64,000 nt of DNA, taken from contig OZ242318.1 in assembly GCA_965208105.1 (NCBI GenBank), positions 4,544,001-4,608,000 on the forward strand. Direction: 5' to 3'. Below the pieces are notes generated by a model that saw only the letters and a program-made list of their open reading frames with translations, had not been told where the DNA came from and did no database searches. Shown one piece after another: positions 4,295 through 51,750 of this stretch (position 1 is the stretch's first letter; each line of letters begins with the position of its first letter). Source of the DNA: Candidatus Latescibacterota bacterium. Lineage in GTDB: Bacteria; Latescibacterota; UBA2968; UBA8231. The position numbers and the translations under genes were made by a program.

Positions 4295-4326
4295 ACTTGC
4301 CTTCGTATGCTACCCCGAGGGGCAGT

Positions 4327-35628: not shown

Positions 35629-35992
35629 TGGTTCGTCGTCCTGCGTCGGAAGGAGTAGCGGTTACCGGCGCTGATTGTCGCGGTGGTGATTGCCCCGACT
35701 CCAAGGGACAATAATTCAAACTAGATGTAGCTCTGGCGCCGCGTCAAGATGGGAGGTTCATCCTGAATGGTATTTTAAAGAAGAAAGCGGAAATTGAAGG
35801 ATTTAGTGGACCGTTTTGTCCTGCTTGCAGTTGAGGGGAAATCAGTAGGATATTTGTCAAATATTTTTTAGTTTACTGGTGTAAAATCGGAAACGAGATT
35901 CAAGGGCAATGACGCCGGCAAGAAAAATTTTATTCGAGACTTTGGGAATCGGCAATTGTCTGCCTGGGTATAAACGCGAAAGGAGAGGAGAG

Positions 35993-36523
35993 ATGAATCG
36001 GATTAAATTGGCAGTCTCAATTCCAGGAAGGACATTCCCGAAAAATGGTCGCACAGGATTTTCGATTCTCGCCGCCGCCTTGATTTTTCTGGGCTGCTCG
36101 CGCTCCGGCCACCATCCCGACCCCATAGCGCCCGAGATCCCGAGCTCCCCCTACGACATAGAAGCCGGCGCGATAATTTTTTCGAACAGTGCACCCGAAA
36201 ATCTTTCTCAGCGACCGGTCAACAGGAATAAAGATATTTGGATTCATTGGGTGATTTACAACGTTGGGATCGAACCGATTCCCTCGCAGTCGATTTTGTT
36301 GCAAGTGCTCATCGATGGAAAGGTGTCTTCCTACGGCTTTTCGAACCCAACTCCTGTACGACCGGGTAGTTATTTTTCGGCTGGCAGACGCGGGCCTTTT
36401 GCAAGGTACTTTGAAGAAGCGAGGCAGTACGAAATCAAATTGAAGGTTCGCCTACAGAGCCAACTCGGCGAGACCAATCTGGACAACAATGAAATCACCC
36501 GCTTTGTCGATGTGACGGAATGA
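35993..36523 (+). CDS. CSRSGHHP lipoprotein L1 (CARDB/Ig-like)
   Basis: AGGAG RBS; FLGC lipobox then SRSGHHPDPIAP; NVG; ETNLDNNE tail. Confidence 0.75.
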   Translation: MNRIKLAVSIPGRTFPKNGRTGFSILAAALIFLGCSRSGHHPDPIAPEIPSSPYDIEAGAIIFSNSAPENLSQRPVNRNKDIWIHWVIYNVGIEPIPSQSILLQVLIDGKVSSYGFSNPTPVRPGSYFSAGRRGPFARYFEEARQYEIKLKVRLQSQLGETNLDNNEITRFVDVTE

Positions 36524-36589
36524 TGTGGGAGGAGAGGATTCAGCGGTGACAGTTGCTGCACCCACGCTACCAAAGGCTGTTTACTGACG

Positions 36590-37066
36590 ATGTTACATTG
36601 TTCAGTCTGTATTCTTGCAACCTTGCTTTTGGCTGGCTGCTCGCGCTCCGGCCACCATCCCGAACCGATAGCGCCAGAGATCCCGCGCTCCCCCTACGAC
36701 ATAGAAGCCGGCAACATAAGATTTTTGAACGATGAACACATAAAGCGTTCTCAACCACCGGTCAATAGGAATAAAGATATTCGGGTAGCTTGGGAAATTA
36801 ACAACGTAGGGATCGAACCGATTCCCTCCCAGGCGATTTTGTTGACAGTGTTAATCGATGGAAAGGTGTCTTCCTACGGCTTTTCGAACCCTGATCCTGT
36901 ACGTCCTGGTAAAGCCTTTGCCGGTGGCAAACGCGGGGCTTTTGCAAGGTACTTTGAAGAAGCGAGGCAGTACGAAATCAAATTGAAGGTTCGCCTGCCG
37001 AGCAAGCTCGGCGAGACAAATCTGGACAACAATGAATTCACCCGCTTTATCGAGGTGACGGAATAA
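36590..37066 (+). CDS. CSRSGHHP lipoprotein L2 (close paralog of L1)
   Basis: LAGC lipobox, SRSGHHPEPIAP, ETNLDNNE; long DNA-level identity with L1. Confidence 0.75.
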   Translation: MLHCSVCILATLLLAGCSRSGHHPEPIAPEIPRSPYDIEAGNIRFLNDEHIKRSQPPVNRNKDIRVAWEINNVGIEPIPSQAILLTVLIDGKVSSYGFSNPDPVRPGKAFAGGKRGAFARYFEEARQYEIKLKVRLPSKLGETNLDNNEFTRFIEVTE

Positions 37067-37109
37067 CGGAGATCGGGCAGGGCCGGTTAATCGTTCTTTT
37101 CCCCACACC

Positions 37110-38492
37110 ATGCCTACTCAATTTCAAAGCCGCAGTCGTCTGTTCAAGTTTATCCTCCTGGCGGGGCTGCTGCACCTGATGCTTATCGTCGCGATTGGGG
37201 TGCGCACGATATATGAGGTCAAAGAGCCCACCATGTCGGGAAAGTTCGTCAAACGCCGGCCGCTGCAGCAGCCGGTATTGCGGCGCCCTCTGCTTCAACC
37301 TTCCCCCGTGCGCCGGCTGGAGCGCATTGTGGAGGCACCCCGCGCTTACTCCAGGGCCGTGGTCCAGCGAGCATTGAGCCCGGTTTCCCCCCGGTTGCTG
37401 TCGAGCCGCCATGTGCTGCCCTCGCTGCTGCCGAGACCCCTGCGACCGTCCGGTAGTTTTCGCGGCAGCGGCCGCCTGCGGTCCTCGGCGGCCGGGATCG
37501 AGATTCGGGCCGAAGACCACATGGACCTGGGTCTGGAACTGTTGGACGTGGACGCCTTCGATACGGGGCGTTATCGCGGCCTGGTGGTGCAGGACCCGAT
37601 GGACAAGCGCAAGCTGCAGGGTTTCGTGCGCTTCTCCGCGGTGGAGATACGTTCCGCCTCGGAGAATACGGCCGATCTCTTCTGGGGTCTGCCCGTTGCC
37701 GCGGCGCGCGCTATCGATCAAGGTGCCGCTTACTTTCCGGATTGGCGCCATTCGGCGAATGTTCGGGCGCTGCACAGCCTGGCGATGGAACTGGAGGCGG
37801 AGACCGAGTTGAGCGCCGTGGTGGACGAGAACGCCACCCTGGACGCACCTGAGGTCCTGTCCAGTCCGTTCATCATGCTGACCAGCATGGTGGAGTTCGA
37901 GCCGACGGAATCCGAAGTCGCCAAGCTGGGTCGTTATCTGACCTCGGGAGGTTTTGCCTACGTGGAGCAGGTGGGCTCGGATGTTCATGGACAGGTGACC
38001 GGGACCTATCCCGAGGTGATTTCCTTGCGTTCCCTGGTGCGCCGGGCACTCGCAACTCAGGGACTGCGAGAAGGTAGCGACTGGAGGTTCGAACCGCTGT
38101 CGCTGGACCATCCGCTTTTTCACAGCTATTTCGACATCCACACCCTGCCTGTCAACTACTGGCAGGCGACCTATGCCGATCGCGAAGGGGTTTCCGAGAA
38201 GCGTGGAGCCTCTCGATACCCTACCGATGAGTATATCCCGCACTATATAGAGGGGATTCACCTGGAAGGCCGGCTGGTGCTGGTGTATTCGCAGCAGAAC
38301 TACCGCGATTTCTGGTCGAAACGCCCGGAGCGGGCGCTGACCGAGTCGTCCCGATACCGGCTGACCGATTTCGTCCGAATGCCCCTCCATCGTCCGAGCA
38401 GCACGCCGGCCATTCGCCTGGGCATCAACGTGGTGGTCTACGCTCTGACCCAGGAAGGCTCCTTGGCTCGGCGCCTGGTCAAGGCGAAGTGA
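37110..38492 (+). CDS. DUF4159-like protein D1 with N-terminal TM anchor and Pro/Arg-rich linker
   Basis: PFIMLT, LGRYLTSGGF, DHPLFHSYF, GIHLEGRLVLVYS, AIRLGINVVVYALT; TM LLAGLLHLMLIVAIG. Confidence 0.7.
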   Translation: MPTQFQSRSRLFKFILLAGLLHLMLIVAIGVRTIYEVKEPTMSGKFVKRRPLQQPVLRRPLLQPSPVRRLERIVEAPRAYSRAVVQRALSPVSPRLLSSRHVLPSLLPRPLRPSGSFRGSGRLRSSAAGIEIRAEDHMDLGLELLDVDAFDTGRYRGLVVQDPMDKRKLQGFVRFSAVEIRSASENTADLFWGLPVAAARAIDQGAAYFPDWRHSANVRALHSLAMELEAETELSAVVDENATLDAPEVLSSPFIMLTSMVEFEPTESEVAKLGRYLTSGGFAYVEQVGSDVHGQVTGTYPEVISLRSLVRRALATQGLREGSDWRFEPLSLDHPLFHSYFDIHTLPVNYWQATYADREGVSEKRGASRYPTDEYIPHYIEGIHLEGRLVLVYSQQNYRDFWSKRPERALTESSRYRLTDFVRMPLHRPSSTPAIRLGINVVVYALTQEGSLARRLVKAK

Positions 38493-38673
38493 GTTTATTG
38501 AGCACCCATCAATCTCGAACAAACGTTGCTTAGAAATGAAACATATTGGGGTAGCTTTTGAGGGAAAGTCATTGAGCAGAAACCGATCGCCCGATGTATA
38601 CGAAAATCCTTAACCCCTGGTTTCCTTCAGAGCCACCTTGGGAGTAATTTTGAAGATCAGGAAGGAGGCGGCA

Positions 38674-39189
38674 ATGACGAAGTTCTCGCGCGTGGGATTT
38701 TTCATTCTCCTCTTGGCTGGCTGCTCTCGTTCCGGCCACCATCCTGAACCGATCGCTCCCCAGAATACGCGCTCGCCCTATGATGTAGAGGCACACGCGA
38801 TCAGGGTATACAAGACTGGTGTCCAGGGGCAGAAATCAGGACTGAAGGACCCTCAGGTAACGCTAAATATCGCAGATTCGATCGCTGCCCGAGTCCGTAT
38901 TTATTTGCGAAACGTGGGGCAGGCCGTTTTGCCGGAAGGATCTATGCACTACAAGGTCACGATAAATGACACACGGTTTTCAACTGACGGAGGATACGGT
39001 AATTCGACTCCAAAGAAACAAGAAAAATTTTTGATTATAACAATGCCAGTCAAAACTATCCTGCGCACTTACAAGTTGAACAAACCCGGTCGCTACGAGG
39101 TCGTGTTACGGGTTTGGCTTGACGAAGAATTGGGTGAAACAAATCTCGACAACAATGAGTTGATTCACTTCTTCCATGTGGAAGAATAG
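38674..39189 (+). CDS. CSRSGHHP lipoprotein L3
   Basis: AAGGAGG RBS; LAGC lipobox; PGRYEV, ETNLDNNE. Confidence 0.75.
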   Translation: MTKFSRVGFFILLLAGCSRSGHHPEPIAPQNTRSPYDVEAHAIRVYKTGVQGQKSGLKDPQVTLNIADSIAARVRIYLRNVGQAVLPEGSMHYKVTINDTRFSTDGGYGNSTPKKQEKFLIITMPVKTILRTYKLNKPGRYEVVLRVWLDEELGETNLDNNELIHFFHVEE

Positions 39190-39292
39190 AGGAGTTCGGG
39201 TTGGACCGGCGGACCACTCCAAGTTTTTTTCAATTGTTTTGATGTTGGAGAGTATTCTTTATGAAGAAAGCGATCGGATTTGAAGGGCTGAG

Positions 39293-39823
39293 ATGACAAG
39301 GATCTTACCTGTAGTTTCGGTTACTCTTCTTTTGGTTGGCTGCTCCCGCTCCGGGCATCATCCCGACCCCATAGCGCCGGTTCAGGCCAAGTCGGAGTAT
39401 GATATATGGGCAAAATCGGTTCGGGTGTACAAGGATTCAGCTGACGCCCACACCTACCGACGGGCACTGCCCCCTCAGCGAACTCTTAGTTTGGCAGACT
39501 CGACCTCTGCAATTGTCTATTATAGTATTCAAAACGTGGGGTCGGCCACGTTGCCGATAGGATCCATCCGCCACAGTATCACGATCAATGGCAAGCCGTT
39601 CGTACCTGATGGACACGACAATTTTCAACCAAAACCACCGGGGGGAAGTGCTTCGGGAGGGTACCCAGTCAAAAATTCCAATTTCACTGGACGCAAGTGG
39701 GGACGCAAGTTTAACAAACCCGGCCGCTACGAGGTCCGGCTTCAGGCTTGGCTTGACGAACGCTTTGGTGAAACGAATCTCGACGACAATGTGTTGGTTC
39801 ACTACGTCGATGTGAAAGAATAG
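39293..39823 (+). CDS. CSRSGHHP lipoprotein L4 (most divergent mature domain)
   Basis: LVGC lipobox; signal peptide identical to L6; ETNLDDN tail. Confidence 0.75.
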   Translation: MTRILPVVSVTLLLVGCSRSGHHPDPIAPVQAKSEYDIWAKSVRVYKDSADAHTYRRALPPQRTLSLADSTSAIVYYSIQNVGSATLPIGSIRHSITINGKPFVPDGHDNFQPKPPGGSASGGYPVKNSNFTGRKWGRKFNKPGRYEVRLQAWLDERFGETNLDDNVLVHYVDVKE

Positions 39824-39867
39824 AGGAGATCGGGTAGGACGGGTGAGTCGAGTCTAATCCCCAAACC

Positions 39868-39981
39868 ATGCGTACTCAATTTCACAGCCGCAGTCGTCTG
39901 TTCAAGTTCATCCTCCTGGCGGGGCTGCTGCACCTGCTGCTTGTCGTCGCGATTGGGGTGCGCACGATAGCGGAGGAATAA
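39868..39981 (+). pseudogene. Truncated third copy of the DUF4159-like gene (37 aa, TM anchor only)
   Basis: MRTQFHSRSRLFKFILLAGLLHLLLVVAIGVRTI-AEE-stop. About 100 nt nearly identical to 41272 onward, then an abrupt break. Confidence 0.8.
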
Positions 39982-40092
39982 CGGCTGTAGGTATACTCGC
40001 CACCATCTGACAATGAGTCGGATAAGCTGGAAGGCCGCATAGAGATTAATACCCTCTCACTCCACTGAAACTGGGCACTTGGGTGGCTTTTA

Positions 40093-40608
40093 ATGACGAA
40101 AATGGCATATGTGGTTTTTGCGCTTTTGGTTTTAATCGGCTGTTCACGTTCCGGCCACCATCCCGACCCGATCGCTCCCCAGAATACGCGCTCGCCCTAT
40201 GATATAGAGGCACACGCGATCAGGGTATACCAGACTGGGGTCCAGAGGCAGAAATCAGGACTGAAGGACCCTCAGGTAACGCTTAATATCGCAGATTCGA
40301 TCTCTGCCCAGGTCGGTATTTGGATGCGGAACGTGGGGCAGGCCGTTTTGCCGGAAGGCTCTATGCACTTCAAGGTCACGATAAATGACACACGGTTCTC
40401 AACTGACGGAGGATACGGTAATCCGGATCCAAGAAAGCCGGGGAAGTTTGAAATCTGGTTCCTTCCAGTCAAAACTATCCTGCGCACTTACAAGTTGAAC
40501 AAACCCGGTCGCTACGAGGTCGTGTTTCGGGTTTGGCTTGACGAAAAATTTGGTGAAACGAATCTCGACAACAATGAGTTGATTCACTTCTTCCATGTGG
40601 AAGAGTAG
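40093..40608 (+). CDS. CSRSGHHP lipoprotein L5 (close paralog of L3 and L6)
   Basis: LIGC lipobox; same framework as L3. Confidence 0.75.
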   Translation: MTKMAYVVFALLVLIGCSRSGHHPDPIAPQNTRSPYDIEAHAIRVYQTGVQRQKSGLKDPQVTLNIADSISAQVGIWMRNVGQAVLPEGSMHFKVTINDTRFSTDGGYGNPDPRKPGKFEIWFLPVKTILRTYKLNKPGRYEVVFRVWLDEKFGETNLDNNELIHFFHVEE

Positions 40609-40712
40609 AGGAGATCGGGTTTGACCGGTGGACCACTCCAAATTTTTTTCAAATTGTTATGATGCTGGAGAGTATTCTTTATGAAGATGGGGATCGGATT
40701 TGAAGGGCTGAG

Positions 40713-41228
40713 ATGACAAGGATCTTACCTGTAGTTTCGGTTACTCTTCTTTTGGTTGGCTGCTCCCGCTCCGGCCACCATCCTGAACCGATAGCTCCCC
40801 AGAATACGCGCTCGCCCTATGATATAGAGGCCCACGCCGTTAGGGTATACAAGACTGGGGTCCAAGGGCAGAAATCAGGACTGAAGGACCCTCAGGTAAC
40901 GCTTAATGTTGCAGATTCGATCGCTGCCCGGGTCGGTATTTGGATGCGGAACGTGGGGCAGGTCATTTTGCCGGAAGGATCTATGCACTACAAGGTCACG
41001 ATCAATGACAAGCGGCTCTCAACTGACGGAGGATACGGTAATTCGGCTCCAAAGAATCCGGGAAAGTTTCAAATCTACTACATTCCAGTCAAAACTATCC
41101 TGCGCACTTACAAGTTGAATAAACCCGGTCGCTACGAGGTCGTGTTTCGGGTTTGGCTTGACGAAGAATTTGGTGAAACGAATCTCGACAACAATGAGTT
41201 GATTCACTACTTCGATGTGGAAGAATAG
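40713..41228 (+). CDS. CSRSGHHP lipoprotein L6
   Basis: L4-type signal peptide joined to an L3/L5-type mature domain. Confidence 0.75.
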   Translation: MTRILPVVSVTLLLVGCSRSGHHPEPIAPQNTRSPYDIEAHAVRVYKTGVQGQKSGLKDPQVTLNVADSIAARVGIWMRNVGQVILPEGSMHYKVTINDKRLSTDGGYGNSAPKNPGKFQIYYIPVKTILRTYKLNKPGRYEVVFRVWLDEEFGETNLDNNELIHYFDVEE

Positions 41229-41271
41229 CGGAGATGGGGTTGGACCGGTGAATCGGTCTTTTCCCCACGCC

Positions 41272-42654
41272 ATGCGTACTCAATTTCACAGCCGCAGTCG
41301 TCTGTTCAAGTTCATCCTCCTGGCGGGGCTGCTGCACCTGCTGCTTATCGTCGCGATTGGGGTGCGCACGATATATGATGTCAAAGAGCCCACCATGTCG
41401 GGAAAGTTTGTCAAACGCCGGCCGCTGCAGCAGCCGGTTTTGCGGCGCCCTCTGCTTCAACCTTCCCCCGAGCGCCGGCTGGAGCGCATTGTGGAGGCGC
41501 CCCGCGCTTACTCCAGGGCCGTGGTCCAGCGAGCATTGAGCCCGGTTTCCCCCCGGTTGCTGTCGAGCCGCCATGTGCTGCCCTCGCTTCCTCCCAGACC
41601 CCTGCGACCGTCCGGCAGTTTTCGCGGCAGCGGCCGCCTGCGGTCCACGGCGGCCGGGATCGAGATTCAGGCGGAGGACCACATGGACCTGGGTCTGGAA
41701 CTGCTGGACGTGGACGCCTTCGATACGGGGCGTTATCGCGCCCTGGTGGTGCAGGACCCCATGGACAAGCGCAAGCTGCAGGGTTTCGTGCGCTTCACCG
41801 CGGTGGAGATCCGTTCCGCCTCGGAGAATCTGGCGGATCTCTTTTGGGGCATGCCCATAGCCGCGGCACGCAGTATCGATCGAGGTAGCGTGTACTGGCC
41901 GGATTGGCGCCATTCGGCGAATGTTCGGGCGCTGCACAGCCTGGCGATGGAGTTGGAGGCGGAGACCGGGTTGAGCGCCGTGGTGGACGAGAACATCACA
42001 CTGGACGCTCCGGAGGTGCTGACCAGTCCATTCATTATGCTGACCAGCCTTGTGGAATTCGAGCCGACGGAAACCGAGGTCGCCAAGCTGGGGCGCTATC
42101 TGACCTCGGGTGGTTTTGCCTACGTGGAGCAGGTTGGCTCGGACTCCCATGGACGGCAGAGCGGGACCTTTCCGGAGATCATTTCCTTGCGTTCCCTGGT
42201 GCGCCGTGCCCTGGCCTCCCAAGGGCTGGGCGAAGGCGGCGACTGGAGCTTCGAACCGCTGTCGATGGACCATCCCCTCTTCCACTGTTACTATGACATC
42301 GACACCCTGCCCCTCAACTTTTGGCAAGCGACTTACGTCGACCGGGAGGGGCAAACCGAGCGGTATGGCCAAAGTCGATATCCCACGGACGAGTACATCC
42401 CTCGCTATATCGAGGGAATTCACCTGAACGGCAGGCTGGTGCTGGTGTATTCGCAGCAGAACTATCGCGATTTCTGGTCGAAACGTCCGGAGCGAACGCT
42501 GACCGAGGCGTCAGAACACTTTCTGGCCAATTGGAATCAGGTGCCCTTCCATCGACCGAGCAGCATTCCGGCGATCCGCCTCGGCATCAACGTGATGGTC
42601 TACGCTCTGACCCAGGAAGGCTCCTTGGCCAGGCACCTGGTCATGGGGAGGTGA
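41272..42654 (+). CDS. DUF4159-like protein D2 (460 aa, colinear paralog of D1)
   Basis: ATG 41272 matches the D1 start; same length and motifs. Confidence 0.7.
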   Translation: MRTQFHSRSRLFKFILLAGLLHLLLIVAIGVRTIYDVKEPTMSGKFVKRRPLQQPVLRRPLLQPSPERRLERIVEAPRAYSRAVVQRALSPVSPRLLSSRHVLPSLPPRPLRPSGSFRGSGRLRSTAAGIEIQAEDHMDLGLELLDVDAFDTGRYRALVVQDPMDKRKLQGFVRFTAVEIRSASENLADLFWGMPIAAARSIDRGSVYWPDWRHSANVRALHSLAMELEAETGLSAVVDENITLDAPEVLTSPFIMLTSLVEFEPTETEVAKLGRYLTSGGFAYVEQVGSDSHGRQSGTFPEIISLRSLVRRALASQGLGEGGDWSFEPLSMDHPLFHCYYDIDTLPLNFWQATYVDREGQTERYGQSRYPTDEYIPRYIEGIHLNGRLVLVYSQQNYRDFWSKRPERTLTEASEHFLANWNQVPFHRPSSIPAIRLGINVMVYALTQEGSLARHLVMGR

Positions 42655-42701
42655 GCTATCAGCCCGGGTGGCAGGCTATTTCTCAATGGGTGTGCTTTGA
42701 G

Positions 42702-44423
42702 ATGAGAAGTAGATTTTCGGGTTCGTATATCTCGAGCAGATCAAGCTATGGAATTTTTCTCGTTGCGGCCTCGGTTTCCTTTTTGTTGGCCCAACCCTCA
42801 CTCGCGCAAGAATGGCTGAGTGAGGGAGAGGAAGGGTTTCTCCCTGGCAAGCTCGACGGACTGGAGATAACCAACGATGGGGATCTTCGCCTGACATCCT
42901 TCGAGGGGGTCAACTTCGCCCTGGGGATCGACACCTATTCCAATGGTACGGCCCTGGGGGCCGCGCTCACCGACGGAAACCTCGCCACCGAGTGGGATTT
43001 CGACGAGGATCCAAAGGTAGTCGGCAAGACCATCGACATCGATCTGGGCGGCAACCGGCTCGTCAACCAGGTGCGCATCTTGCCCGGCTCCGGGGCCGGT
43101 GCCGATAACCCGGAGTATTTCGTCAAAGGATACCGGGTCGAGATGGCCCCTGAAGAGGCGCCTGATGCGTTCGGTGTGGTGGCGGACAACCATGTCAATC
43201 GAGTCCCCCTGGTAGATACGAGCGCCGACGGTACCTGGCTGCGCTACGAAGACGGTGCTCCGGTTGCCACACTGGGAAGATACCTCCGGGTCACCATCAC
43301 ACGGCAGGATCTGCCCAATTGGGTGATCATCGGCGAGGTGGAAGTGTTCGGCACCGGGTTTCATGCCCGCGGCCAGTACTTGTCGGCCCTTCACGACTTC
43401 GGTGAACGGGTCAACGTTGGCGCCGGGTTTTTCCAAGCCGAGACCCCGCCTGGAACCCGGATGCACTTGCAGTTTCGAGCCGGTGTTGACCAGGACTACC
43501 TGCCGAGGTGGGATGATTTTCCCTTTTACGGCGTGGATGAGGGCAAGCGGGGTGTCTTTTTCCCTGTCCGCGATCCCTCCCGGTACATCCAGTACCGAGC
43601 CCTGCTGGAGACGGAGAATCCGTTCATCTCACCTGAGCTTAGCGAGGTGCGGGTGCAGTTCGACCCCCGGCTCGTTGCCCGGTCAGCCACCGGCAGAATC
43701 GATCCGCGTGAAGTGCCTGTGGGAGAGCCGGTGAGTCTCACCTACACTGCCGAGATTTATCTGGGCTCGGAGAACTACCCTCTGGACCTTTTGATCCTGG
43801 ACCGGCCTGGGAAGCTGGAAGAGATCTCCATGAGGTTGGCTGTGGTTCCTCCTGAGAAATACAGGACGCTGACGCCGCATGGTTCGCTGCAGGAAGACAA
43901 TCTGATCATCCAGCTCGACCCCGATCTCATCCGTTCAAGCGTCAGACAATTGGAAATTGTTTTCACCACCGTCTTCTTCATGGGCACCGAGGAAGTGAAT
44001 TTGTTCCTCGGGTCTTCGCTAGAAGGTTCCGACCCTGAAAACCTGCAGAAGGTCGCACCGCGGATAAAGGACGGCACGTTAGTGACCGTACTGGGTGCAG
44101 TCGACGAGCTTGTGCCTTCCGCCAGCGTGGCGATCCGGCCGCGGGTGTTCAGGCCGGACCGCGGCGGCGCTACGCGCATCGAGTTCGATCTGACCAAGGT
44201 ACTCGTGCCGGTGCCCGTGACGGTTACCATTCACGAGTTGTCCGGCCGCCGGGTTAGCACCGTGGTCGATCGCGAGATGTTGGCAGCTGGTGAGATCTCC
44301 ATCTCCTGGGACGGCTTCGACGACCACCGCGGGGTTCTCGCACCAGGGATCTACATGTGCAGGATCCGGGTCCACGCCCAGGAATCCGCGACCCTCGTTC
44401 GTTTCCTGGGCATCGCCTATTGA
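42702..44423 (+). CDS. Secreted discoidin/F5-8-like domain protein with C-terminal FlgD-like Ig domain
   Basis: Signal peptide; LTDGN..TEW, IDIDLGG, GRYLRVTI, IGEVEVFG; C-terminal IHELSGRRV...WDGFDD..GVLAPGIY. Confidence 0.7.
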   Translation: MRSRFSGSYISSRSSYGIFLVAASVSFLLAQPSLAQEWLSEGEEGFLPGKLDGLEITNDGDLRLTSFEGVNFALGIDTYSNGTALGAALTDGNLATEWDFDEDPKVVGKTIDIDLGGNRLVNQVRILPGSGAGADNPEYFVKGYRVEMAPEEAPDAFGVVADNHVNRVPLVDTSADGTWLRYEDGAPVATLGRYLRVTITRQDLPNWVIIGEVEVFGTGFHARGQYLSALHDFGERVNVGAGFFQAETPPGTRMHLQFRAGVDQDYLPRWDDFPFYGVDEGKRGVFFPVRDPSRYIQYRALLETENPFISPELSEVRVQFDPRLVARSATGRIDPREVPVGEPVSLTYTAEIYLGSENYPLDLLILDRPGKLEEISMRLAVVPPEKYRTLTPHGSLQEDNLIIQLDPDLIRSSVRQLEIVFTTVFFMGTEEVNLFLGSSLEGSDPENLQKVAPRIKDGTLVTVLGAVDELVPSASVAIRPRVFRPDRGGATRIEFDLTKVLVPVPVTVTIHELSGRRVSTVVDREMLAAGEISISWDGFDDHRGVLAPGIYMCRIRVHAQESATLVRFLGIAY

Positions 44424-44436
44424 CGCGAGGCGCAAT

Positions 44437-47067
44437 GTGAAACGGGTTGTTCTACCCTTGTTGCTCTTCGGCTTGTCCGCCGGTGCTTTCGCCTCGGAGA
44501 AAGACTATGGTGTTTTACTCCAGCGACCCGCGATGAAAGCCTACCGCAACTACGCCGAATACTCCTACCGGAATTACCGCTCCGCTCTCCGCGTAAACCC
44601 GCGCTACAGCTTTCTGGGCGATTTTCTTGCCGAAGGATTTCGCGCTTTCAGACTCGACGACCAGCGTCCCGGCAGGAGTCTCCTCTCCAAGGACGGGGTC
44701 TACCGGGGCATGTTCGGAAACCTGCTCATTGCGCGCAACTCCTACGGGCGCCTCAACCTGGCCCTGACCGTCGGCGACGATGTGCGCACCCACCTGACCC
44801 CCCTGACCATGCAGCGGGCCAGTTTCAATGGTCTGCGCTGGGAGATCGAGTTCGCCAACAACCGGGTAACCCTGCTCAGCACTCGCGGCTACGACAACTC
44901 GGAGTTTCCGGCTTTCCCCAGCTTTTCTACTCCCATCGATGACAATTTCACCGACTTCCGGGGAGATCTGGAGCAGGAGTTCATTATCGAGGAAGACGAT
45001 CCGGTCTACACTTTCGGGGGCCACTGGGAAACCCAGGCGGGGGACGTGCTGACCCTGGGGATGACCTTTCTCAACCAGCAGCAGATCAACACCGGGGCGC
45101 TGCGCCAGGACAGCTTTGTGGCCGGCAGCGTGCCCTATCCCGAGATGTTGTCGCCTGAGAAACTGATGCTGCGCATCACCGACGACTCCCCCGGCAGTAG
45201 GGACCATGGCGCCACCATATTTACCGCCTTTCTGGAAATGGAGGGGAGCGTGGGTGGAGAGAACACCACGATCAGCAGCGATCCTCGCAGCCCCCATTTC
45301 GACGAATCGCTGCAGCCAAAGACGGAAGGGGTGGTGAAGGAGAATGGAAGGTGGGACATTCGCGGCGACGAGGAACTTATAATTACTTTCGAGCTGCCGG
45401 AAGGCAGCACCTCCAGGCGCGCCCGCTTCATCGTGTCCGCGGCCAACGACTATCGCATCGCCGCGGCGCAGGAGCACATATTCTATCTGGACTTAAGCTC
45501 GCGCACGACTCCCTTCATGACCCTGCGCCGCGCCTCAGGCGAGGTGAGCGACGGCTCCAACTTCCGGGAGCTGGTGATCGACTACGGTCTCAACAGCGGC
45601 CAGATCCTCTACGGTATGGACTTCGCCGCCGACCTGGCGGGCCTCAAGCTGCGCGGCGAGGTGTCGAAAAACACCCTCTACCGCAAGTACCCGATCATAT
45701 CCGGCCGCAGCCTGCGCCGCGATACCGGGGCCTGGTACCTGCAGGCGGTAAGGACCTTTCCGCGCCTGCGCCGGCTTTCCCTGGGCGCCGAGTTCTTCCA
45801 CGTCGGCCCGCGCTACGGCGGCGGCTACGACAGCCGCCGCGGCGGTGTGGTGCTCTACACGGATTTTGGCGGGGAGGGCATCGATCCTGTAACGGCCGAG
45901 TTTCCCCTGGTGGACGACAACGACGACAACGACCGCTACTCCGACGACAACAAAAACGATTTTCCCGGGTCCTTCGACCTGGAGTCGGGGGTCTACCCGG
46001 GGCTCGACGAAGACAACGACAACATCCCCGACGACGACCGCAACGCCAACGGCATTCCCGATTTCGAGGAGCCCTTTCTGCTCTACCATTCCGACCCCCA
46101 GGAGTTCGTCTATGGCCTGGATTTGAACAACAACGGGGTCATCGACGTGCGCGAGAACGACAACAAGCCCGACTATCCCTACGACCGCGACCGCCGCGGC
46201 CGCCACTACACCGTGGCCGCGCAGCCTTTGCCGCAGCTGGAGGTGGGGGCGGGTCACTACCGCATCCGCGCGTTGGCCGACCCCGGGCGCACCGTCTCCA
46301 CCTACCTGCGCGCCGCCTACTCTTACGCCCACCCCGAGAAGCTGGAGATCGAGCTCAACCACGACTCCAAGCGGGTCAGGGACACTATTCCCGATTCGGT
46401 CTACGTCTTCGATCCGGCCCGCATCGTGACGCCCCTGGAACCGCCGGACCCCGATCCCCTGCTGCAACAGAACAGTTGGGTGCACACCTCCTTTGCCGGG
46501 GTGCGCTGGAGCCGCTGGGCGCCGCTCTACCTGGAGGCCAATTTCAAACAGGTCCTCAACCGCCTGTTCGACCTGGGCCACACGCGGGTGTCGGAGCGCG
46601 ACCGCCGGGTGACCCGGACCATGGTCAACAAGGTGGACTACCGGATGGAGTGGGGCCGCTTCACGGTGATGCCCATGTACAAGCGCCTGTGGCGCCGGGT
46701 GGATCTGGACTCCCGGGAGGGTGCGGCGGTGTGGGAGGTGCAGTCGGCGCCGATGCTGCGGGTGGACTACCGGGTGAGCGGAGACATGAAGGTGCAGATG
46801 GGCCAGCAGGGGCTGCGGCTTCCCTTTGCGGGCATGGACCGTGTGCTGGCGTTTCACCTGGACGACCAGGTGCGGCGCTATCGCAGCTACACCTCCACCG
46901 ACTTCATGTTCATGCTCACGTTGAAGGGCAGCTACCTGGGCAACGTGCTGACGACCAACTCGGGGATTCAACTGCACAGCCGCCGGTTCGACCAGATCGG
47001 GGCGGGGTCGGATCTCAAGTTCACCCGCTTCTTCGTGGAAGTGGTGGCCGGATTCGAGCATTTCTGA
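44437..47067 (+). CDS. Large outer-membrane-type protein with Asp/Asn-rich Ca-binding-like repeats
   Basis: GTG start with signal peptide; family motifs shared with 1245..4214; ends FFVEVVAGFEHF. Confidence 0.72.
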   Translation: MKRVVLPLLLFGLSAGAFASEKDYGVLLQRPAMKAYRNYAEYSYRNYRSALRVNPRYSFLGDFLAEGFRAFRLDDQRPGRSLLSKDGVYRGMFGNLLIARNSYGRLNLALTVGDDVRTHLTPLTMQRASFNGLRWEIEFANNRVTLLSTRGYDNSEFPAFPSFSTPIDDNFTDFRGDLEQEFIIEEDDPVYTFGGHWETQAGDVLTLGMTFLNQQQINTGALRQDSFVAGSVPYPEMLSPEKLMLRITDDSPGSRDHGATIFTAFLEMEGSVGGENTTISSDPRSPHFDESLQPKTEGVVKENGRWDIRGDEELIITFELPEGSTSRRARFIVSAANDYRIAAAQEHIFYLDLSSRTTPFMTLRRASGEVSDGSNFRELVIDYGLNSGQILYGMDFAADLAGLKLRGEVSKNTLYRKYPIISGRSLRRDTGAWYLQAVRTFPRLRRLSLGAEFFHVGPRYGGGYDSRRGGVVLYTDFGGEGIDPVTAEFPLVDDNDDNDRYSDDNKNDFPGSFDLESGVYPGLDEDNDNIPDDDRNANGIPDFEEPFLLYHSDPQEFVYGLDLNNNGVIDVRENDNKPDYPYDRDRRGRHYTVAAQPLPQLEVGAGHYRIRALADPGRTVSTYLRAAYSYAHPEKLEIELNHDSKRVRDTIPDSVYVFDPARIVTPLEPPDPDPLLQQNSWVHTSFAGVRWSRWAPLYLEANFKQVLNRLFDLGHTRVSERDRRVTRTMVNKVDYRMEWGRFTVMPMYKRLWRRVDLDSREGAAVWEVQSAPMLRVDYRVSGDMKVQMGQQGLRLPFAGMDRVLAFHLDDQVRRYRSYTSTDFMFMLTLKGSYLGNVLTTNSGIQLHSRRFDQIGAGSDLKFTRFFVEVVAGFEHF

Positions 47068-47082: not shown

Positions 47083-50000
47083 ATGACTCTCATAGCCATG
47101 TTTTCGGTTTTCCTGGTAACCGTCGGGGTCAGCCTCCTGGAGGACTCGCCGCGGGAGCTGGGCAACCGCTTCAAGCGCGCCCAAAAATTAATGGTGATGG
47201 GGGACTTCGACACTTCCATCGCCGCCTACGAGCAGCTCATGGAGACCCCCGGCTCGGCCCTGCTGCGAGCGGACCGGGTGGAGGTAGAGGTGGGTGAGGA
47301 GGTGCTGCCCCTCAAGGTGGCCGCCGCCTACCAGGTGGCCAGCAGCTACCGCCGCCGGGCAGAGGAGCAGTTGCAGGTCTACCGGGACAGCGCCGTTGTG
47401 CCCCGGTTCGAGGACCTGCACACCGCGGCCCGTTTCTACCGGATCCTGGCGGACGAGGAGAGCACCCCTGAAACTCTGCGCCAGCGGGCCGCTTTTCAGG
47501 TGGGCAGTTGCTATTTCAAGAACCAGGATTACGTCGAGGCCATAGCCGCATTCGACTGGTTCGTCCAGGCGTTTCCTTCCAGCGAGTACCGTCTCCAGGC
47601 GAGCTACCACACCGCCTGGGCCCTCTTCCACACCGAGCAATGGGAACGGGCGGGGGCGGAGTTTCGCGCCGTGGCCTCCCAGGTCCCAGGCACCGACCGG
47701 GGTCTCAGGTCCCTGTTCCAGTCGGGAGAAGCCGAGGAAAGAATGGGTCGTTTCGAGCGCTCGGTGCGGGCTTTTGAGGAGATCGCCGCCTTTTACGACG
47801 AGGGCGAGTACGGAGCGGGCCTCCGCCGCGACGAGCTCATGCGCGCCCTGCGCGAAAAGCTCCCGGTCACTCGCCGCGAGCTCATCGGCAAGGGGCACAT
47901 GCGCACCGGGGACGCCTATCGCCATCTCGACTCCCTCGCCGCCGCTGCGCACTGGTACCGGCTGACCGCGCGCCGATTTCCCACCGACGCGCAACTGCTC
48001 AAGGACGCCTATCTGCGCCTGGCCGAGATGGATGCCGACGCCGGGCGCGTGGACGAGGCCCTGGCGGCCTACCGCACCGCCCTGGAGGAGGTGATGGATC
48101 CATTCTTCCGCGCCCTGGTCCAGGCCGAGATGATGGCTCTGGCCTTCGCATCGGAGCGCTATCTCGAAGCCGCGCAGATGTATGGATTCTACATAGATGC
48201 CTTCGGCTCCTATGCCGAAGAGGTAGGCGTTCCCGTCGACCGGGCACGACTGCTCAAGGCGGAGTCCCTGCGCCTCGCCGCCCAGGATACGGCAGACCCG
48301 GCCTCCTCCGACTCCCTCCACGCACGCTCTCTTGAAGTCTATCACGGCCTGTTGCAGAGCACCCGGGTGGACAGCCTGGCGGCAGAGGCGTTGCTGGGTG
48401 CCGGAATCTGCCTGCAAAGTCTCGACCGTCCCGGCGCCGCGCGAGAGCACTACGAGAGGCTCACCGGCGAATACGGCGCAACCCGGGTGGCCATGTGGGG
48501 AAGGCTGCACCTGGCGCGCCTCTATGCCGAGGAAGGAGCCAGGGCCAAGGCGCTGCGCCACTACGAGGACCTGGCGGCCGGCGGCGACGGGGAGCTGCGC
48601 GACCTCGCTCGCATGGAGCTGGCCGTGCTTCTGGAGGGGGAGGGGCAGAGCGACCGGGCCTTGGAGCTGCTTTCCCGGATAGGGCCCGAGTCCGCGGAGT
48701 TCGGCCGCGCTCAGATGGTATTGGCCCGCCTGCTCACTGTCCGCGAGCGTTGGGCCGAGGCGCGCCGGGTGGTCCACCACGCCCTCGACCGGGCCGTGGA
48801 CCCGTCGGTCCGGGCCCAGTTGAGCTACTCCCGTGCCGAAATCGCCTTCGAGGCAGCCCAGTACGACTCGGTAATCCGCATCCTGGCCGCATTGGATACC
48901 ACCCGGCTGCAGCAGCCTTTTGACCACGACCGCCTCTACCTGCGCGGCGTCGCGCGCTACCAGACCGGAGCATACGCCCGGGCATTGGACGACCTTCGCG
49001 CCTACCTTGCCGGTGATGCGGCGCTGCGGGCGCAGACCATTCAGACCATCGCCCTGTGCCTGGGGCAACTGCTGGAGGCGGAGCAGGCCGCGGAGCAACT
49101 GGTCCGGTGGGGCGCCGAGGCGACGGACCCCGGTGAGGGCGGCGAATGGACCATGGGCCTGGCGCGGTTTCTCCACCGCCGGAAAGACTACGACCGCGCC
49201 CTCGAGGTGCTGCAGGGGCTGGATAGCGAAAACGACCTCCAGGCCCACCGCGCCCGCCTCGTGGAGGGCGAAATTCTGCTGGCGCAGCAACGCTGGGACG
49301 CCGCTCGCACGGTCCTGGCGCAGATCCAACCCGACCCCCTCTCGCCCGGCGACCGCTCGCACCGCCTCTACCTGATGGGGATCGCCGCCATGAACGGGGA
49401 GGACTACGAGGGGGCGGTTTTCAGCTTTCAGGCCTTGCTGGCGCTCCGCACTCAGGGCGATCTTTCCCGCCAGGCCGCCCTCTACCTTGGCCAGAGTTAC
49501 TACACCCTGGGAAAGTACCCCCGCGCCGCTGCGGTCTTCGAGGATCTTGCGGAGCGCTTTCCTGCTCACCCGGACGGCCACGAAGCGGCCTACCTGGCCG
49601 GGGACAACTATTACCTGCTCGGGGACTACGAGCGGGCATCCCGGGCCTACCAGAGAGTACTTCTGGGCCCGCGCCTTCCCGAGGCTATGCTCGCCCTGGC
49701 CTGGTGCCATCTGCACAGAGAGGACGCCGCGGCCATGGAGCAGGCCCTGAAACTCCTGCAGGAGCGCTTCCCCCAAAGTCCTCTGGCCCCTCGGGCGGCC
49801 ATGATGTTCGCCGATTACCACTACAACCGCGCAGACTACAAGCGCGCCAGCCAGGCCTACGAGAGCCTGAGGCGGCGCTATCCCCAAAGCCCGGAAGCCG
49901 GGCGCTCGTCGCGGCTGCTGGTGGATCTGGCCGACCTGGAAGCCGATCGCCTCTACCAGGAGGCCATGGCCGCCTTCGACGGCGGCGACTACGAGGGCGC

Positions 50001-50223
50001 CCGTCGGCAGCTGGAGGCGGTGGCGCAGCGTTTTCCCGGCACCCTGTCGGAGATGGCGGCGCGCTGCAACATCGGGGTGTGCTACGAGAAGACGGGACAG
50101 TGGCGCCGGGCCGCCGCCGTCTACGACAGCCTGCTGCAGAGGGGGGAGGCCGATCCGCAGTACGGCGCCATGCTGCGCTTTGCGCGGGAGCACCGCGACT
50201 GGATTCGCGACTACCGACTCTAA
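47083..50223 (+). CDS. Large tetratricopeptide-repeat protein (BamD/CpoB-like repeats)
   Basis: N-terminal hydrophobic segment; many A..Y..A...F..L...FP repeats. Confidence 0.8.
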   Translation: MTLIAMFSVFLVTVGVSLLEDSPRELGNRFKRAQKLMVMGDFDTSIAAYEQLMETPGSALLRADRVEVEVGEEVLPLKVAAAYQVASSYRRRAEEQLQVYRDSAVVPRFEDLHTAARFYRILADEESTPETLRQRAAFQVGSCYFKNQDYVEAIAAFDWFVQAFPSSEYRLQASYHTAWALFHTEQWERAGAEFRAVASQVPGTDRGLRSLFQSGEAEERMGRFERSVRAFEEIAAFYDEGEYGAGLRRDELMRALREKLPVTRRELIGKGHMRTGDAYRHLDSLAAAAHWYRLTARRFPTDAQLLKDAYLRLAEMDADAGRVDEALAAYRTALEEVMDPFFRALVQAEMMALAFASERYLEAAQMYGFYIDAFGSYAEEVGVPVDRARLLKAESLRLAAQDTADPASSDSLHARSLEVYHGLLQSTRVDSLAAEALLGAGICLQSLDRPGAAREHYERLTGEYGATRVAMWGRLHLARLYAEEGARAKALRHYEDLAAGGDGELRDLARMELAVLLEGEGQSDRALELLSRIGPESAEFGRAQMVLARLLTVRERWAEARRVVHHALDRAVDPSVRAQLSYSRAEIAFEAAQYDSVIRILAALDTTRLQQPFDHDRLYLRGVARYQTGAYARALDDLRAYLAGDAALRAQTIQTIALCLGQLLEAEQAAEQLVRWGAEATDPGEGGEWTMGLARFLHRRKDYDRALEVLQGLDSENDLQAHRARLVEGEILLAQQRWDAARTVLAQIQPDPLSPGDRSHRLYLMGIAAMNGEDYEGAVFSFQALLALRTQGDLSRQAALYLGQSYYTLGKYPRAAAVFEDLAERFPAHPDGHEAAYLAGDNYYLLGDYERASRAYQRVLLGPRLPEAMLALAWCHLHREDAAAMEQALKLLQERFPQSPLAPRAAMMFADYHYNRADYKRASQAYESLRRRYPQSPEAGRSSRLLVDLADLEADRLYQEAMAAFDGGDYEGARRQLEAVAQRFPGTLSEMAARCNIGVCYEKTGQWRRAAAVYDSLLQRGEADPQYGAMLRFAREHRDWIRDYRL

Positions 50224-50250: not shown

Positions 50251-50907
50251 ATGGGCATAGATTCCTTCCTTCTCGATCAGTTTGACAAGGGCGGTCCGCT
50301 GATGTGGCCCCTGGCGCTGTGCTCGCTGACGGCGCTCACCGTCGGTCTGGAGCGCCTGTGGGTGCTGCTGCGGGTCCCGGGGGACGAGGGCGCCCGCGCC
50401 GAAATGGAGGCGGTTCTGGCGCGGAAGGAGGAACTGGACGGGGCCGACCTTTTGGCCCACCTGCTTCAGCGCAAGGGGGTGCTGGCGGCGGTCTACGCCG
50501 CGGTGCAGCGCAAGTATCTGGCGCTTTTGGAGGAGGGCCAGGGAGCGGCGGAGCAGCGCGCCGAGCTGGGTCGGGAGGCCAACGCGGCCTGCCGCGAGTA
50601 TCTGGGCCAGTTTCTTCCGGTTCTGAGCACGATTGGCAGCATCGCTCCGCTGTTGGGTCTTCTGGGCACGATCACGGGGATGATCAAGGCCTTTGCGGCC
50701 ATCGCCACGGCGGGGGTGGGGGATCCGAGCCAGGTGGCCGACGGCATCTCGGAGGCGCTGATCACCACGGCGACGGGTCTGATCATCGCGATCCCGGTGA
50801 TCGTGCTGCACCGCTACCTGGCGCTGCGCGCCGGCCGCGTCATGCGGCGCCTGGAGCTCTACACCCAGGCGCTGGGCCGCGCCCTGGTGGAGGAGGAACG
50901 CCGGTGA
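50251..50907 (+). CDS. exbB: MotA/TolQ/ExbB proton channel protein
   Basis: GGPLMWPL, IAPLLGLLGTITGMIKAF, GISEALITTATGLIIAIP. Confidence 0.88.
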   Translation: MGIDSFLLDQFDKGGPLMWPLALCSLTALTVGLERLWVLLRVPGDEGARAEMEAVLARKEELDGADLLAHLLQRKGVLAAVYAAVQRKYLALLEEGQGAAEQRAELGREANAACREYLGQFLPVLSTIGSIAPLLGLLGTITGMIKAFAAIATAGVGDPSQVADGISEALITTATGLIIAIPVIVLHRYLALRAGRVMRRLELYTQALGRALVEEERR

Positions 50908-51335
50908 ACATCTACGACGAAGCCGGGGCCCCCGGCTTCGACCAATCCGACCATCCGGACCTGACGCCCTTGATCGACTGCGTCATGCTGCTGTTGGTGT
51001 TCTTCATGATCACCACGGCCTTCTACGCTTTGCGCGGGCTCGAGGTGGTGATGCCGCCGGTGTCGGCCACCGCGGCCGCGCCGGAGGTCGACCGCGACGT
51101 CAACGTCTACATCGGCCCCTCGGGGGCCATCCAGGTACGCGGCTCCACGGTGGAGCCGGCCCAGTTGGCCGAGGTCTTCAAGGAGGCGGCCGGCGAGGGC
51201 GGCCGGGCCCTGGTGCTGGAGGCGGCGCCCCAGGTCGAGCACGAGCGCGTCGTCCTGGTGATGGACCTGGCGCGCCAAGCGGGGATCCGCGAGGTGATCT
51301 TCGCCCGCATGGAGGAGGAGGGCCATGGACCCTGA
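50904..51335 (+). CDS. exbD: ExbD/TolR biopolymer transport protein 1
   Basis: GTG overlaps the exbB stop; DLTPLIDCVMLLLVFFMITT. Confidence 0.85.
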   Translation: MNIYDEAGAPGFDQSDHPDLTPLIDCVMLLLVFFMITTAFYALRGLEVVMPPVSATAAAPEVDRDVNVYIGPSGAIQVRGSTVEPAQLAEVFKEAAGEGGRALVLEAAPQVEHERVVLVMDLARQAGIREVIFARMEEEGHGP

Positions 51336-51750
51336 AGGCGAACTTTTCTGGGACGAGATCAAGCCGGACCTCACTCCTCTGATCGACGGGGTGTTTCTGC
51401 TTTTGATTTTCTTCATGGTGACCACCATCTTCGCCCGGCCCATCAGCCTCGAGGTGGAGCTGCCGGCGGCGGCCGATCCGGCCGACGTGAAGGCGCAGCA
51501 CGTCAAGCTCTACGTCACCGACAAGGGGCAGTTGGACCTGGAAGGAGAAAAGATCGACGCGGCAGGGCTGGAAGAGGCGCTGCGGCCCTACGTGGGCGAG
51601 GGCCGGGAAATCAGGCTGACCATTCTGGCCGACCGCCGCACCCCCCACGGCCATACCCTGGAGGCCATGGAGGCGGCGCAGCGCGCCGGGATCCACCGGG
51701 TCTACCTGGCCACCAGGACTCGCAACCCGGGAGAAGGGAGCGCACCGTGA
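51325..51750 (+). CDS. exbD: ExbD/TolR biopolymer transport protein 2
   Basis: DLTPLIDGVFLLLIFFMVTT, VELP, ILADRR. Confidence 0.85.
   Translation: MDPEGELFWDEIKPDLTPLIDGVFLLLIFFMVTTIFARPISLEVELPAAADPADVKAQHVKLYVTDKGQLDLEGEKIDAAGLEEALRPYVGEGREIRLTILADRRTPHGHTLEAMEAAQRAGIHRVYLATRTRNPGEGSAP

Follow-up and report, generated by a model that had tools for sequence, protein, structure and literature searches.

A tandem array of genes for small lipoproteins (L) and DUF4159 proteins (D) occupies positions 35993-42654, on the + strand, of a 64,000-nucleotide stretch of DNA from a Candidatus Latescibacterota bacterium; the stretch, called the window here, is C1:4544001-4608000 of a 4.85-Mb single-contig genome, with C1 denoting that contig. 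The array is real and recombining. It contains six intact lipoprotein genes (L1-L6), two intact genes for DUF4159 proteins of 460 aa (D1 and D2), and a 37-codon DUF4159 stump, and it forms the duplicated head of a ~19-kb same-strand cluster that includes genes for an ExbB/ExbD-type motor. Tentatively, and with a confidence that falls just short of calling it probable, we interpret the array as a duplicated module of one or two lipoprotein genes and one D gene that serves as the variable front end of a Ton/Tol-like cluster, with D acting as a motor-coupled adaptor whose loops are specific to each paralogue. The cluster is present in multiple copies in this genome and is widespread in relatives titled Latescibacterota.

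In the proposed mechanism, D would be held in the membrane by a transmembrane (TM) helix with the (S/A)xxxH motif of the TonB/TolA type, and its Arg/Pro-rich linker would span the periplasm. The DUF4159 head, which has no conserved nucleophile, would be a docking module rather than an enzyme, and D would thereby couple the ExbB/ExbD motor of the cluster to an outer-membrane or exported partner. Four loops of the head would set partner choice; candidate partners are the co-encoded lipoprotein, an FG-GAP protein, or a paralogue of a putative outer-membrane beta-barrel protein (Big). Sets of alternative specificities would then arise as modules are duplicated and the scaffold is homogenized by gene conversion, while divergent loops and lipoprotein cores are retained. 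Candidate roles for the machine are uptake, surface display/adhesion, and motility.

A literature search, with supplementary files outside its scope, found no description of this layout, in line with the preliminary description of the array, which knew of no named system of the kind; DUF4159 was encountered only in a Pfam database paper. The family has a solved structure and no described function, and the D proteins give it a concrete, testable context: a TonB/TolA-like anchor, linkage to ExbB/ExbD sets that lack a TonB of their own, and four hypervariable loops. If D proteins are transducers, the repertoire of proton-motive-force transducers in diderm bacteria is wider, and a multi-gene envelope system of mostly unnamed families is defined in an uncultured phylum. 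Moreover, the arrays clearly exemplify in nature how scaffold homogenization combines with loop and cassette diversification, and they could be used for mapping interaction specificity.

The array and its lipoproteins

Open reading frames (ORFs), alignments, and base composition bear out what the preliminary description had said of the appearance of the array: the gene order L1-L2-D1/L3-L4-remnant/L5-L6-D2 on the + strand, AT-rich lipoprotein genes, motifs shared around three mature-domain types, and colinear D1 and D2 that are nearly identical over the N-terminal third and differ in discrete patches. L1 (35993..36523; 176 aa; ORF, lipobox, and a weak Pfam CARDB match, E 0.064) and L2 (36590..37066; 158 aa; ORF, AlphaFold model, and Foldseek) are assigned to type A of a predicted CARDB-fold family and are followed by D1 (37110..38492), with its TM anchor, linker, and DUF4159 head. 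L3 (38674..39189; type B), an ORF of 171 aa when read from ATG with an alternative TTG start at 38638, and L4 (39293..39823; 176 aa), classed as a mosaic type B' from its ORF, identities, and a window comparison with L6, precede the DUF4159 remnant (39868..39981), in which homology to D1/D2 covers the N-terminus and TM anchor, 37 codons in all, before a TAA. L5 (40093..40608) and L6 (40713..41228), both of 171 aa and assigned to type B by ORF and identities, are followed by the D1 paralogue D2 (41272..42654). All of these genes lie on the + strand.

The duplications are evident at the DNA level. L3-L4-stump duplicates L5-L6 together with the start of D2 (38719-39969 against 40138-41373, 81.5% over 1264 nt), and the end of L2 together with D1 duplicates the end of L6 together with D2 (37010-38493 against 41172-42655, 86.9% over 1484 nt), both far above chance; residues 1-36 of the remnant share 86-92% identity with D1/D2, and homology to D2 stops at ~39969. 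G+C content is 0.45-0.53 across the lipoprotein stretches as against 0.60-0.68 in the flanks, and the G+C content of third codon positions is 0.55-0.60 in the lipoprotein genes as against 0.75-0.87 in neighboring genes. A promoter and terminator scan of 35600-42800 gave one promoter-like and two terminator-like sites, for which the shuffled means were higher (4.0 and 7.9). The array has no end at 42654 and continues, with no change of strand, into the downstream cluster, to ~55145.

Comparison of array content among samples, as the preliminary description had advised, showed contigs with different array joints. The stretch 35700-42700 was traced in 20 runs of eight studies, none of them an RNA run, which hold 27-89% of its sampled words; these studies are labeled sponge, marine, or coral-reef metagenome, or carry coded organisms. 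In two runs of different studies 39812 is joined to 39970, so that the stump is omitted, and one 435-nt contig (depth 3.4) joins 39865 to 41270, giving a hint, and only a hint, of L4 directly before a full D. The joints 36517 to 41223 and 36521 to 42039, as well as two backward joints, are left uninterpreted because they are located in repeated ends. In the protein database, four clusters of D and two of L have in common a longest contig of 15,263 nt, and that equal size, by itself, suggests a four-unit array elsewhere.

The six lipoproteins share a frame around different cores. In 6/6 the lipobox Cys is followed by SRSGHHP(D/E)PIAP, and GETNLD(N/D)N lies close to the C-terminus; the lipobox Cys, which follows L-x-G/A/Y/H/C as read from the sequence, is invariant in 12/12 aligned members. 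Identity is 72-75% between L1 and L2, 81-82% among L3/L5/L6, 46-56% between L4 and L3/L5/L6, and 34-41% between L1/L2 and the remaining lipoproteins, giving the three mature-domain types. The matches of L1 (13.9 bits) and L2 (14.2 bits) to Pfam CARDB are under the cut-off of 22.7 bits, although these weak matches reach the end of the profile, and no CARDB match was obtained for L3-L6 in the Pfam scan. An AlphaFold model of the mature part of L2 (11-sequence alignment; predicted local distance difference test, pLDDT, 85.9) had as its best Foldseek match the CARDB domain 3idu_A (E 1.2e-6, template modeling score 0.70), followed by 3idu_B (0.75), 2kl6 (0.67), and 2l0d (E 6.7e-5, 0.75), all scores being normalized to the target. 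The lipoproteins are CARDB-like by fold only, with a predicted beta-sandwich. Conserved NVG and ExNxxNN-type motifs, which we take to mark CARDB, match as well, and from the Foldseek matches the ETNLDNN signature would therefore most simply be the C-terminal motif of that fold. The L profile run against the sequences of the Protein Data Bank gave YcdA (E 0.044) and flagellin (E 0.26), both too weak for use.

Recombination has also shaped the lipoprotein genes. When L4 and L6 are compared in 60-nt windows, 54-57 positions are identical through the signal peptide and tether, 27-41 in the core, and again 50-56 at the 3' end, so that L4 is a mosaic whose first 85 nt and 3' end are L6-like and whose core has diverged. 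The ratio of nonsynonymous to synonymous substitution rates (dN/dS) is 0.96 for L4-L6 and 0.29-0.68 for other L pairs, and relatives of L in the database show additional core types between the same conserved ends. In the whole genome 11 of the 12 lipoprotein copies are intact; the broken one (C1:3855873-3856381), in two frames and with internal stops, lies between D4 and the lipoprotein gene that precedes D5. After the Cys comes a Pro-rich tether of one of three classes, which match the three D clades of the genome (3/3): CSRSGHHPxPIAP with D1/D2, C(S/A)RxGxNPLPxxP with D3-D5, and CT(Q/R)EGENPSPFDI with D6, a match that is confounded by locus and concerted evolution.

Anchor, head, and hypervariable loops of the D proteins

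D1 and D2 align without gaps at 85.9% identity (94% over residues 1-134), and their PF13709 scores of 65.2 and 63.0 bits, against a cut-off of 25.9, place both in DUF4159. Eight DUF4159 matches are above the cut-off in the genome; the strongest, at 229.8 bits, is a 396-aa ORF at C1:1804898-1805473 that lies outside all three D-containing clusters. Pfam finds no other domain in D, and TonB_C (PF03544) in particular gave no match; by the lack of this defining domain the system falls outside the Ton/Tol families.

A possible likeness to TonB and TolA lies in the N-terminal third. D1 can be divided into a TM anchor (~12-31, with His22), an Arg/Pro/Ser-rich linker (32-134; 19 Arg, 13 Pro, and 13 Ser among 103 residues), and the head (~135-460). 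The N-terminal hydrophobic run is the only one in D, and His22 is invariant in 15/15 D proteins. Among the upstream regions of homologues, 79/84 have a TM run, which includes a His in 66 of the 79 and the motif SxxxH in 56. The net charge flanking the run is +4.6 on the N side and +0.8 on the C side, the N side being more positive in 77/84, and D is predicted to be a bitopic inner-membrane protein with a cytoplasmic N-terminus and a periplasmic head. The genome has a sole TonB_C protein, with the TM segment ISALLHLVVFVLF; hhalign placed the D N-terminal profile on this segment, His on His, over 24 columns (probability 76.9%, E 2.1e-5). ExbB loci number four in the genome, one beside the TonB_C protein and three in D-containing clusters that show no TonB_C match. 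It is from the TM His, the charge, the linker, the hhalign alignment, and these ExbB loci without TonB_C that D is proposed to be a transducer or adaptor analogous to TonB/TolA.

The head was modeled from residues 125-460 with 90 aligned homologues (pLDDT 81.1; predicted template modeling score 0.84). Its only strong structural neighbor is the DUF4159 structure 4i66 (Foldseek E 5.8e-11; VIA Z 19.0, root-mean-square deviation 2.4, 187 residues aligned), which the D profile also matches by sequence (E 7.3e-12); weaker neighbors, with Z of 8-10, are glutamine amidotransferase (GATase1), ThuA-like, GH42-middle, and IFT52 folds. No invariant or near-invariant Cys, the GATase nucleophile, occurs among the 90 aligned D heads, and because Cys is conserved in none of the alignment columns the head is unlikely to be an amidotransferase. 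The head is predicted to be GATase1/ThuA-like and is apparently non-catalytic. Co-folding, a check suggested in the preliminary description, was run without controls for the D1 head with mature L2; the ipSAE values were 0.00, 0.35, and 0.01, with a median of 0.01 where the mark is 0.32.

Divergence within the head is concentrated in four patches, defined on D1/D2 (186-209, 290-300, 355-369, and 412-428 in D1 numbering). Patch identity is 51-61%, compared with 90-95% for the rest of the head, both within D1/D2 and within D3/D4/D5; since the patches were defined on D1/D2, the result for D3-D5 (51-61% as against 93-95% in the rest of the domain) is an independent test. In ten more proteins of the D1 clade, drawn from other assemblies and sharing 78-95% identity with D1, 48/67 patch sites and 82/259 other head sites vary, with mean entropies of 0.93 and 0.23, respectively; the corresponding Fisher p of 4e-9 overstates the difference because the 10 sequences are related. 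By the Nei-Gojobori method dN/dS is 0.63-0.89 in the patches and 0.13-0.19 elsewhere (4/4 pairs); the ratio is thus raised in the patches and remains below 1. The patches sit in lower-confidence blocks of the model, and at three of the four the alignment with 4i66 shows gaps or only short segments of that structure.

Synonymous divergence (dS) is distributed unevenly along D, at 0.02-0.11 over the 5' 134-136 codons and 0.21-0.38 in the rest. Our reading is that gene conversion has homogenized the anchor, linker, and scaffold and that the divergent loops have been retained. Six of the seven D copies in arrays are intact.

The downstream cluster and its distribution

Downstream of D2, all on the + strand, the first gene encodes a secreted 578-aa protein (Disc; 42687..44423) in which Pfam recognizes an F5/8 type C (discoidin) domain and a C-terminal FlgD_ig-like domain. 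It is followed by Big (44422..47067), of ~880-925 aa, the start being uncertain within an ORF that opens at 44290, and by a 1046-aa TPR protein (47083..50223) with repeated YbgF/BamD-like units (TIGR02795, 152.3 bits against 90.1; Pfam TPR). The motor genes encode a 218-aa ExbB/TolQ-family proton channel (50251..50907; PF01618, E 5.1e-29) and two ExbD/TolR-like proteins. The first of these, ~141 aa (50904..51328), was recognized by tblastn on the locus of a sister species and by its conserved position, and in the same comparison it is 36-37% identical to the second, 141 aa (51325..51750; PF02472, E 3.9e-26). The cluster continues with Lp244 (51747..52481), a 244-aa lipoprotein of an unnamed family that is conserved at the cluster end in related loci, and with a second Big-family gene that is divided between two frames: an ORF at 52478-53794 matches the N-half of the family and an overlapping one at 53721-55145 the C-half; this could be a frameshifted copy, a split copy, or a sequencing error.

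Neither Big nor Lp244 has a match in Pfam or NCBIfam, and both belong to unnamed clusters of the Atlas, where a DUF6029 row for Big (0.89; a TonB-dependent-receptor-like barrel family) was taken as a lead only. Big has a signal-peptide-like start and a terminal Phe, and at least 40 Big paralogues occur in the genome, distinct from its 24 Plug-domain matches. Many Big genes adjoin ORFs of ~640-690 aa that end in a FlgD_ig-like domain, as at 1245-4220 (-) and 4327-6285 (-) of the window, a pairing that recalls pairs of outer-membrane and surface proteins. The genome has one SprA_N match and 58 FlgD_ig matches, which makes proteins with a FlgD_ig tail plausible candidates for type IX-like cargo. 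On the other side of the array, a gene for a PD40 (TolB-like beta-propeller) lipoprotein adjoins it on the opposite strand (34597-35628, -). In another genus a PD40 gene on the same strand as D immediately precedes and overlaps it (3977-5077, -, in locus L019).

Two further D-containing clusters are found in the genome. At C1:3850059-3877356 four further L-D modules, with D proteins 54-59% identical to D1/D2, are interleaved with the same downstream genes, and at ~C1:1772338-1793475 a distant D lies between TPR and Lp244 genes. Part of the second locus (C1:3868628-3870224) has ExbB and Lp244 copies 98.6% and 94.9% identical to those of the window, with a truncated ExbD (48% coverage) between them, a pattern that points to a recent exchange of sequence between the loci, with the motor genes of one partly decayed.

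Relatives were gathered from 331 pattern matches, of which 191 were confirmed, giving 70 loci and 86 distinct D homologues; most are titled Candidatus Latescibacterota, and a few are labeled Gemmatimonadota, Nitrospinota, or otherwise. D1 has matches in 33/41 related genomes, including 24/24 of the same family. The position before D is commonly taken in other genera by ITW, proteins of ~700-760 aa with FG-GAP repeats and a FlgD_ig C-terminus: the gene immediately upstream of D (n=86) encodes ITW in 38 cases, Big in 12, Lp244 in two, D in one, and another or unrecognized product in 26, with seven at a locus edge, and the downstream neighbors (n=86) include Disc (18), ITW (17), and ExbB (3). Typical layouts are repeats of one or more FG-GAP protein genes and D, and then D-Disc-Big-TPR-Lp244.

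The L family is far narrower in distribution. Among 5.77 billion proteins the L profile retrieved 30 clusters at E <= 0.001, none of them named, and strong matches are restricted to this genus. One search matched 3/41 genomes, one of them marginally (E 0.008, ignored); a wider search matched 18/76, 16 weakly (E 5e-9 to 1.5e-4) and in two other genera. At the three of these 16 loci that were inspected, the weak matches are ~390-aa proteins beside a gene for ~816-821 aa and are not members of the array family; D was not found at these three within the 20 kb fetched, and one of them (L109) has a weak Disc match.

The syntenic locus of the sister species, flanked by PD40, extracytoplasmic function (ECF) sigma, and squalene-synthase-like genes that are 81-88% identical, reads D, Disc, Big, Big, TPR, ExbB, ExbD, ExbD, Lp244, Big, with one D and no lipoprotein. 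D, Disc, Big, and TPR are 45-62% identical to their counterparts in the window, compared with 86-94% for ExbB, ExbD, Lp244, and the final Big gene. It follows that the left half of the cluster is a cassette that has been either swapped or hyper-diverged. In a quick tree the syntenic D falls in the D3-D5 clade rather than the D1/D2 clade (SH-aLRT 100). Elsewhere in the sister species one lipoprotein gene lies directly before Disc with no D between, and degraded lipoprotein copies flank its second D on both sides.

Three related loci have D directly upstream of ExbB-ExbD-ExbD, with DUF4340 and TPR genes beyond these and a small fn3-like lipoprotein gene ahead of D. At one locus of the distant type (L083) the lipoprotein, of 127 aa (9249-9632; fn3 E 0.0017), directly precedes D, and the DUF4340 protein (12495-13838; E 2.3e-42) comes after ExbD; a small Ig-like lipoprotein upstream of D may therefore be an old feature.

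Competing explanations and comparable systems

Several observations weigh against D as a motor-coupled adaptor paired with lipoproteins. D lacks a TonB_C or TolA domain, and BLASTP of D1 residues 1-135 against the TonB of the genome gave no similarity (E 47). The hhalign match covers the TM helix alone, for which composition could suffice, and the motif in D1 and D2 is AxxxH, not SxxxH. The 13 homologues without the His belong to a distant cluster type (L082-L094) that includes the three directly before ExbB. Patch dN/dS is under 1, and patch dS is raised as well (0.47-0.68 as against 0.21-0.38), so that patch divergence may be caused by relaxed constraint on the loops. The linkage of the two families that the preliminary description expected in other genomes did not hold: the L family is confined to one genus, and since the sister species has L before Disc without D and a syntenic D without L, L-D pairing is not obligatory.

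The most serious competitor, which we nonetheless consider unlikely, is neutral birth-and-death of tandem duplicates homogenized by gene conversion, with the patches and L cores as simply the least constrained segments and no selected partner specificity; the arrays would then amount to an ordinary lineage-specific gene expansion. Such a history accounts for the surviving D stump in the array, the broken lipoprotein gene of the second locus (C1:3855873-3856381), the broken copies in the sister species, dN/dS under 1 throughout together with the raised patch dS, and the coincidence of the patches with loops or insertions relative to a minimal DUF4159 fold. It is harder to reconcile with the divergence of the same four segments, against a scaffold kept 90-95% identical, in both independent paralogue groups and again in the 10 additional proteins, with the intactness of 6/7 array D copies and 11/12 lipoprotein copies, and with the recurrence across genera of arrays of a variable exported protein and D in which the partner family differs.

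The adaptor proposal can also be put in a broader form, more speculative and in our view doubtful, in which DUF4159-headed proteins would join TonB and TolA as a third class of transducer coupled to ExbB/ExbD (TolQ/R), one that has radiated into client-paired adaptor arrays, the loops selecting the client or a Big barrel. Each adaptor would be encoded with its own exported client, FG-GAP/FlgD_ig proteins in most genera or CARDB lipoproteins in this genus. The radiation would have taken place in Latescibacterota and some neighbors, and its product would be a modular surface machine powered by the proton motive force for uptake, adhesion, or gliding, with as yet unnamed protein families as its building blocks.

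It is improbable that the lipoproteins are themselves the functional point of the array, as variable surface or outer-membrane Ig-fold adhesins or antigens recombined by cassette, with the D genes as co-duplicated passengers. Conserved signal-peptide, tether, and C-terminal ends around several unrelated cores, the L4/L6 mosaic, and the atypical composition are all consistent with this, as are the surface-like FG-GAP/FlgD_ig proteins in the same position in other genera and the SprA_N and 58 FlgD_ig matches in the genome. However, D has a localized hypervariability that passengers need not show, and in 3/3 clades the tether class and the D clade vary together, subject to the confounding by locus.

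The preliminary description favored cognate DUF4159-lipoprotein pairs that diversify together; polymorphism of both families is upheld by the D patches and the L cores, whereas a self-contained pair is at odds with the place of D in a larger ExbB/ExbD/TPR cluster. In effector-immunity systems the immunity genes usually lie downstream of their effector genes. A polymorphic toxin-like system of cognate pairs, enzyme with inhibitor or effector with immunity protein, is very improbable. The array resembles one superficially, having variable patches in otherwise conserved frames, small genes to spare, and a truncated remnant. Against it, neither D nor L matches a toxin, peptidase, nuclease, or secretion-marker domain in Pfam or NCBIfam, the D head has no conserved nucleophile or other enzyme signature, D is membrane-anchored with no cleavable signal, the small genes lie upstream of D rather than downstream, and D is core to a conserved ExbB/ExbD/TPR cluster that occurs without the lipoproteins both in other genera and, in the sister species, at the syntenic locus; by no feature tested is the array a polymorphic toxin system.

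By analogy, the system would work most like Ton/Tol-type systems. The cluster holds an ExbB and two ExbD proteins; D has a single N-terminal TM segment with a His (usually SxxxH), a Pro/Arg-rich linker, and a C-terminal head that is predicted to be periplasmic; the TPR protein passes the YbgF cut-off; a PD40 (TolB-like) lipoprotein gene is adjacent; and D lies directly before exbB-exbD-exbD in the three related loci described above. In contrast, the D head is DUF4159, of GATase1/ThuA-like alpha/beta fold, and not TonB_C or TolA domain III, D is multi-copy with hypervariable loops, and the distant ExbB-adjacent members are without the His. No Pal-like OmpA gene or TolA match was found among the scanned cluster genes, and Big, the candidate outer-membrane partner family, has no Plug domain match; the best NCBIfam matches of the motor genes are to TolQ and TolR, both sub-threshold (80 against 221 bits and 49.9 against 127.3 bits). 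The phylum belongs to the FCB superphylum, and the passages on TonB, ExbB, and gliding in the paper that places it there concern canonical TonB import (PMC4454575).

The head is most closely comparable to 4i66 (Hoch_4089 of Haliangium ochraceum), with which it shares a sequence match above the cut-off and the same fold; 4i66 has ~200 residues compared with ~325 in the D head, and D adds the TonB-like anchor and linker. The Pfam database paper assigns DUF4159 by structure to the glutaminase clan (PMC4702930). The lipoproteins resemble CARDB (PF07705; PF1109 of Pyrococcus furiosus, 3idu/2kl6) in their predicted beta-sandwich and best Foldseek matches, and differ from it in being single-domain lipoproteins with a conserved Pro-rich tether rather than repeats in large surface proteins. 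A Bat/aerotolerance-type DUF4159 context is characterized by neighboring MoxR ATPase, DUF58, and VWA/BatA genes, families for which no match was obtained among 20 window proteins scanned with Pfam.

As whole gene sets, two other systems invite comparison. The Agl-Glt gliding and Nfs spore-coat sets of Myxococcus combine a TolQ/R-like motor, TonB-like single-pass proteins with Pro-rich linkers, and large TPR proteins with several outer-membrane beta-barrels and lipoproteins, and paralogous whole sets occur per genome. A comparable gene combination and multi-copy sets are seen here; the likeness is one of layout only, since GltC reaches only 20.6 bits against a cut-off of 450 and the phylum is different, and the Agl-Glt/Nfs sets are not known to us to include a DUF4159 head or to carry variable exported proteins in tandem arrays. 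The Sus-like loci of Bacteroidota join outer-membrane protein genes to genes for small Ig-fold or lectin-like surface lipoproteins (SusE/F) in many paralogous loci. The pairing of putative outer-membrane protein genes with Ig-fold lipoprotein or lectin-like genes, again in many paralogous loci, is a point of likeness; no glycoside hydrolases were seen in the cluster, which differs from Sus-like loci in having no SusC (Plug/TonB_dep_Rec) or SusD match and in possessing a dedicated ExbB/ExbD set.

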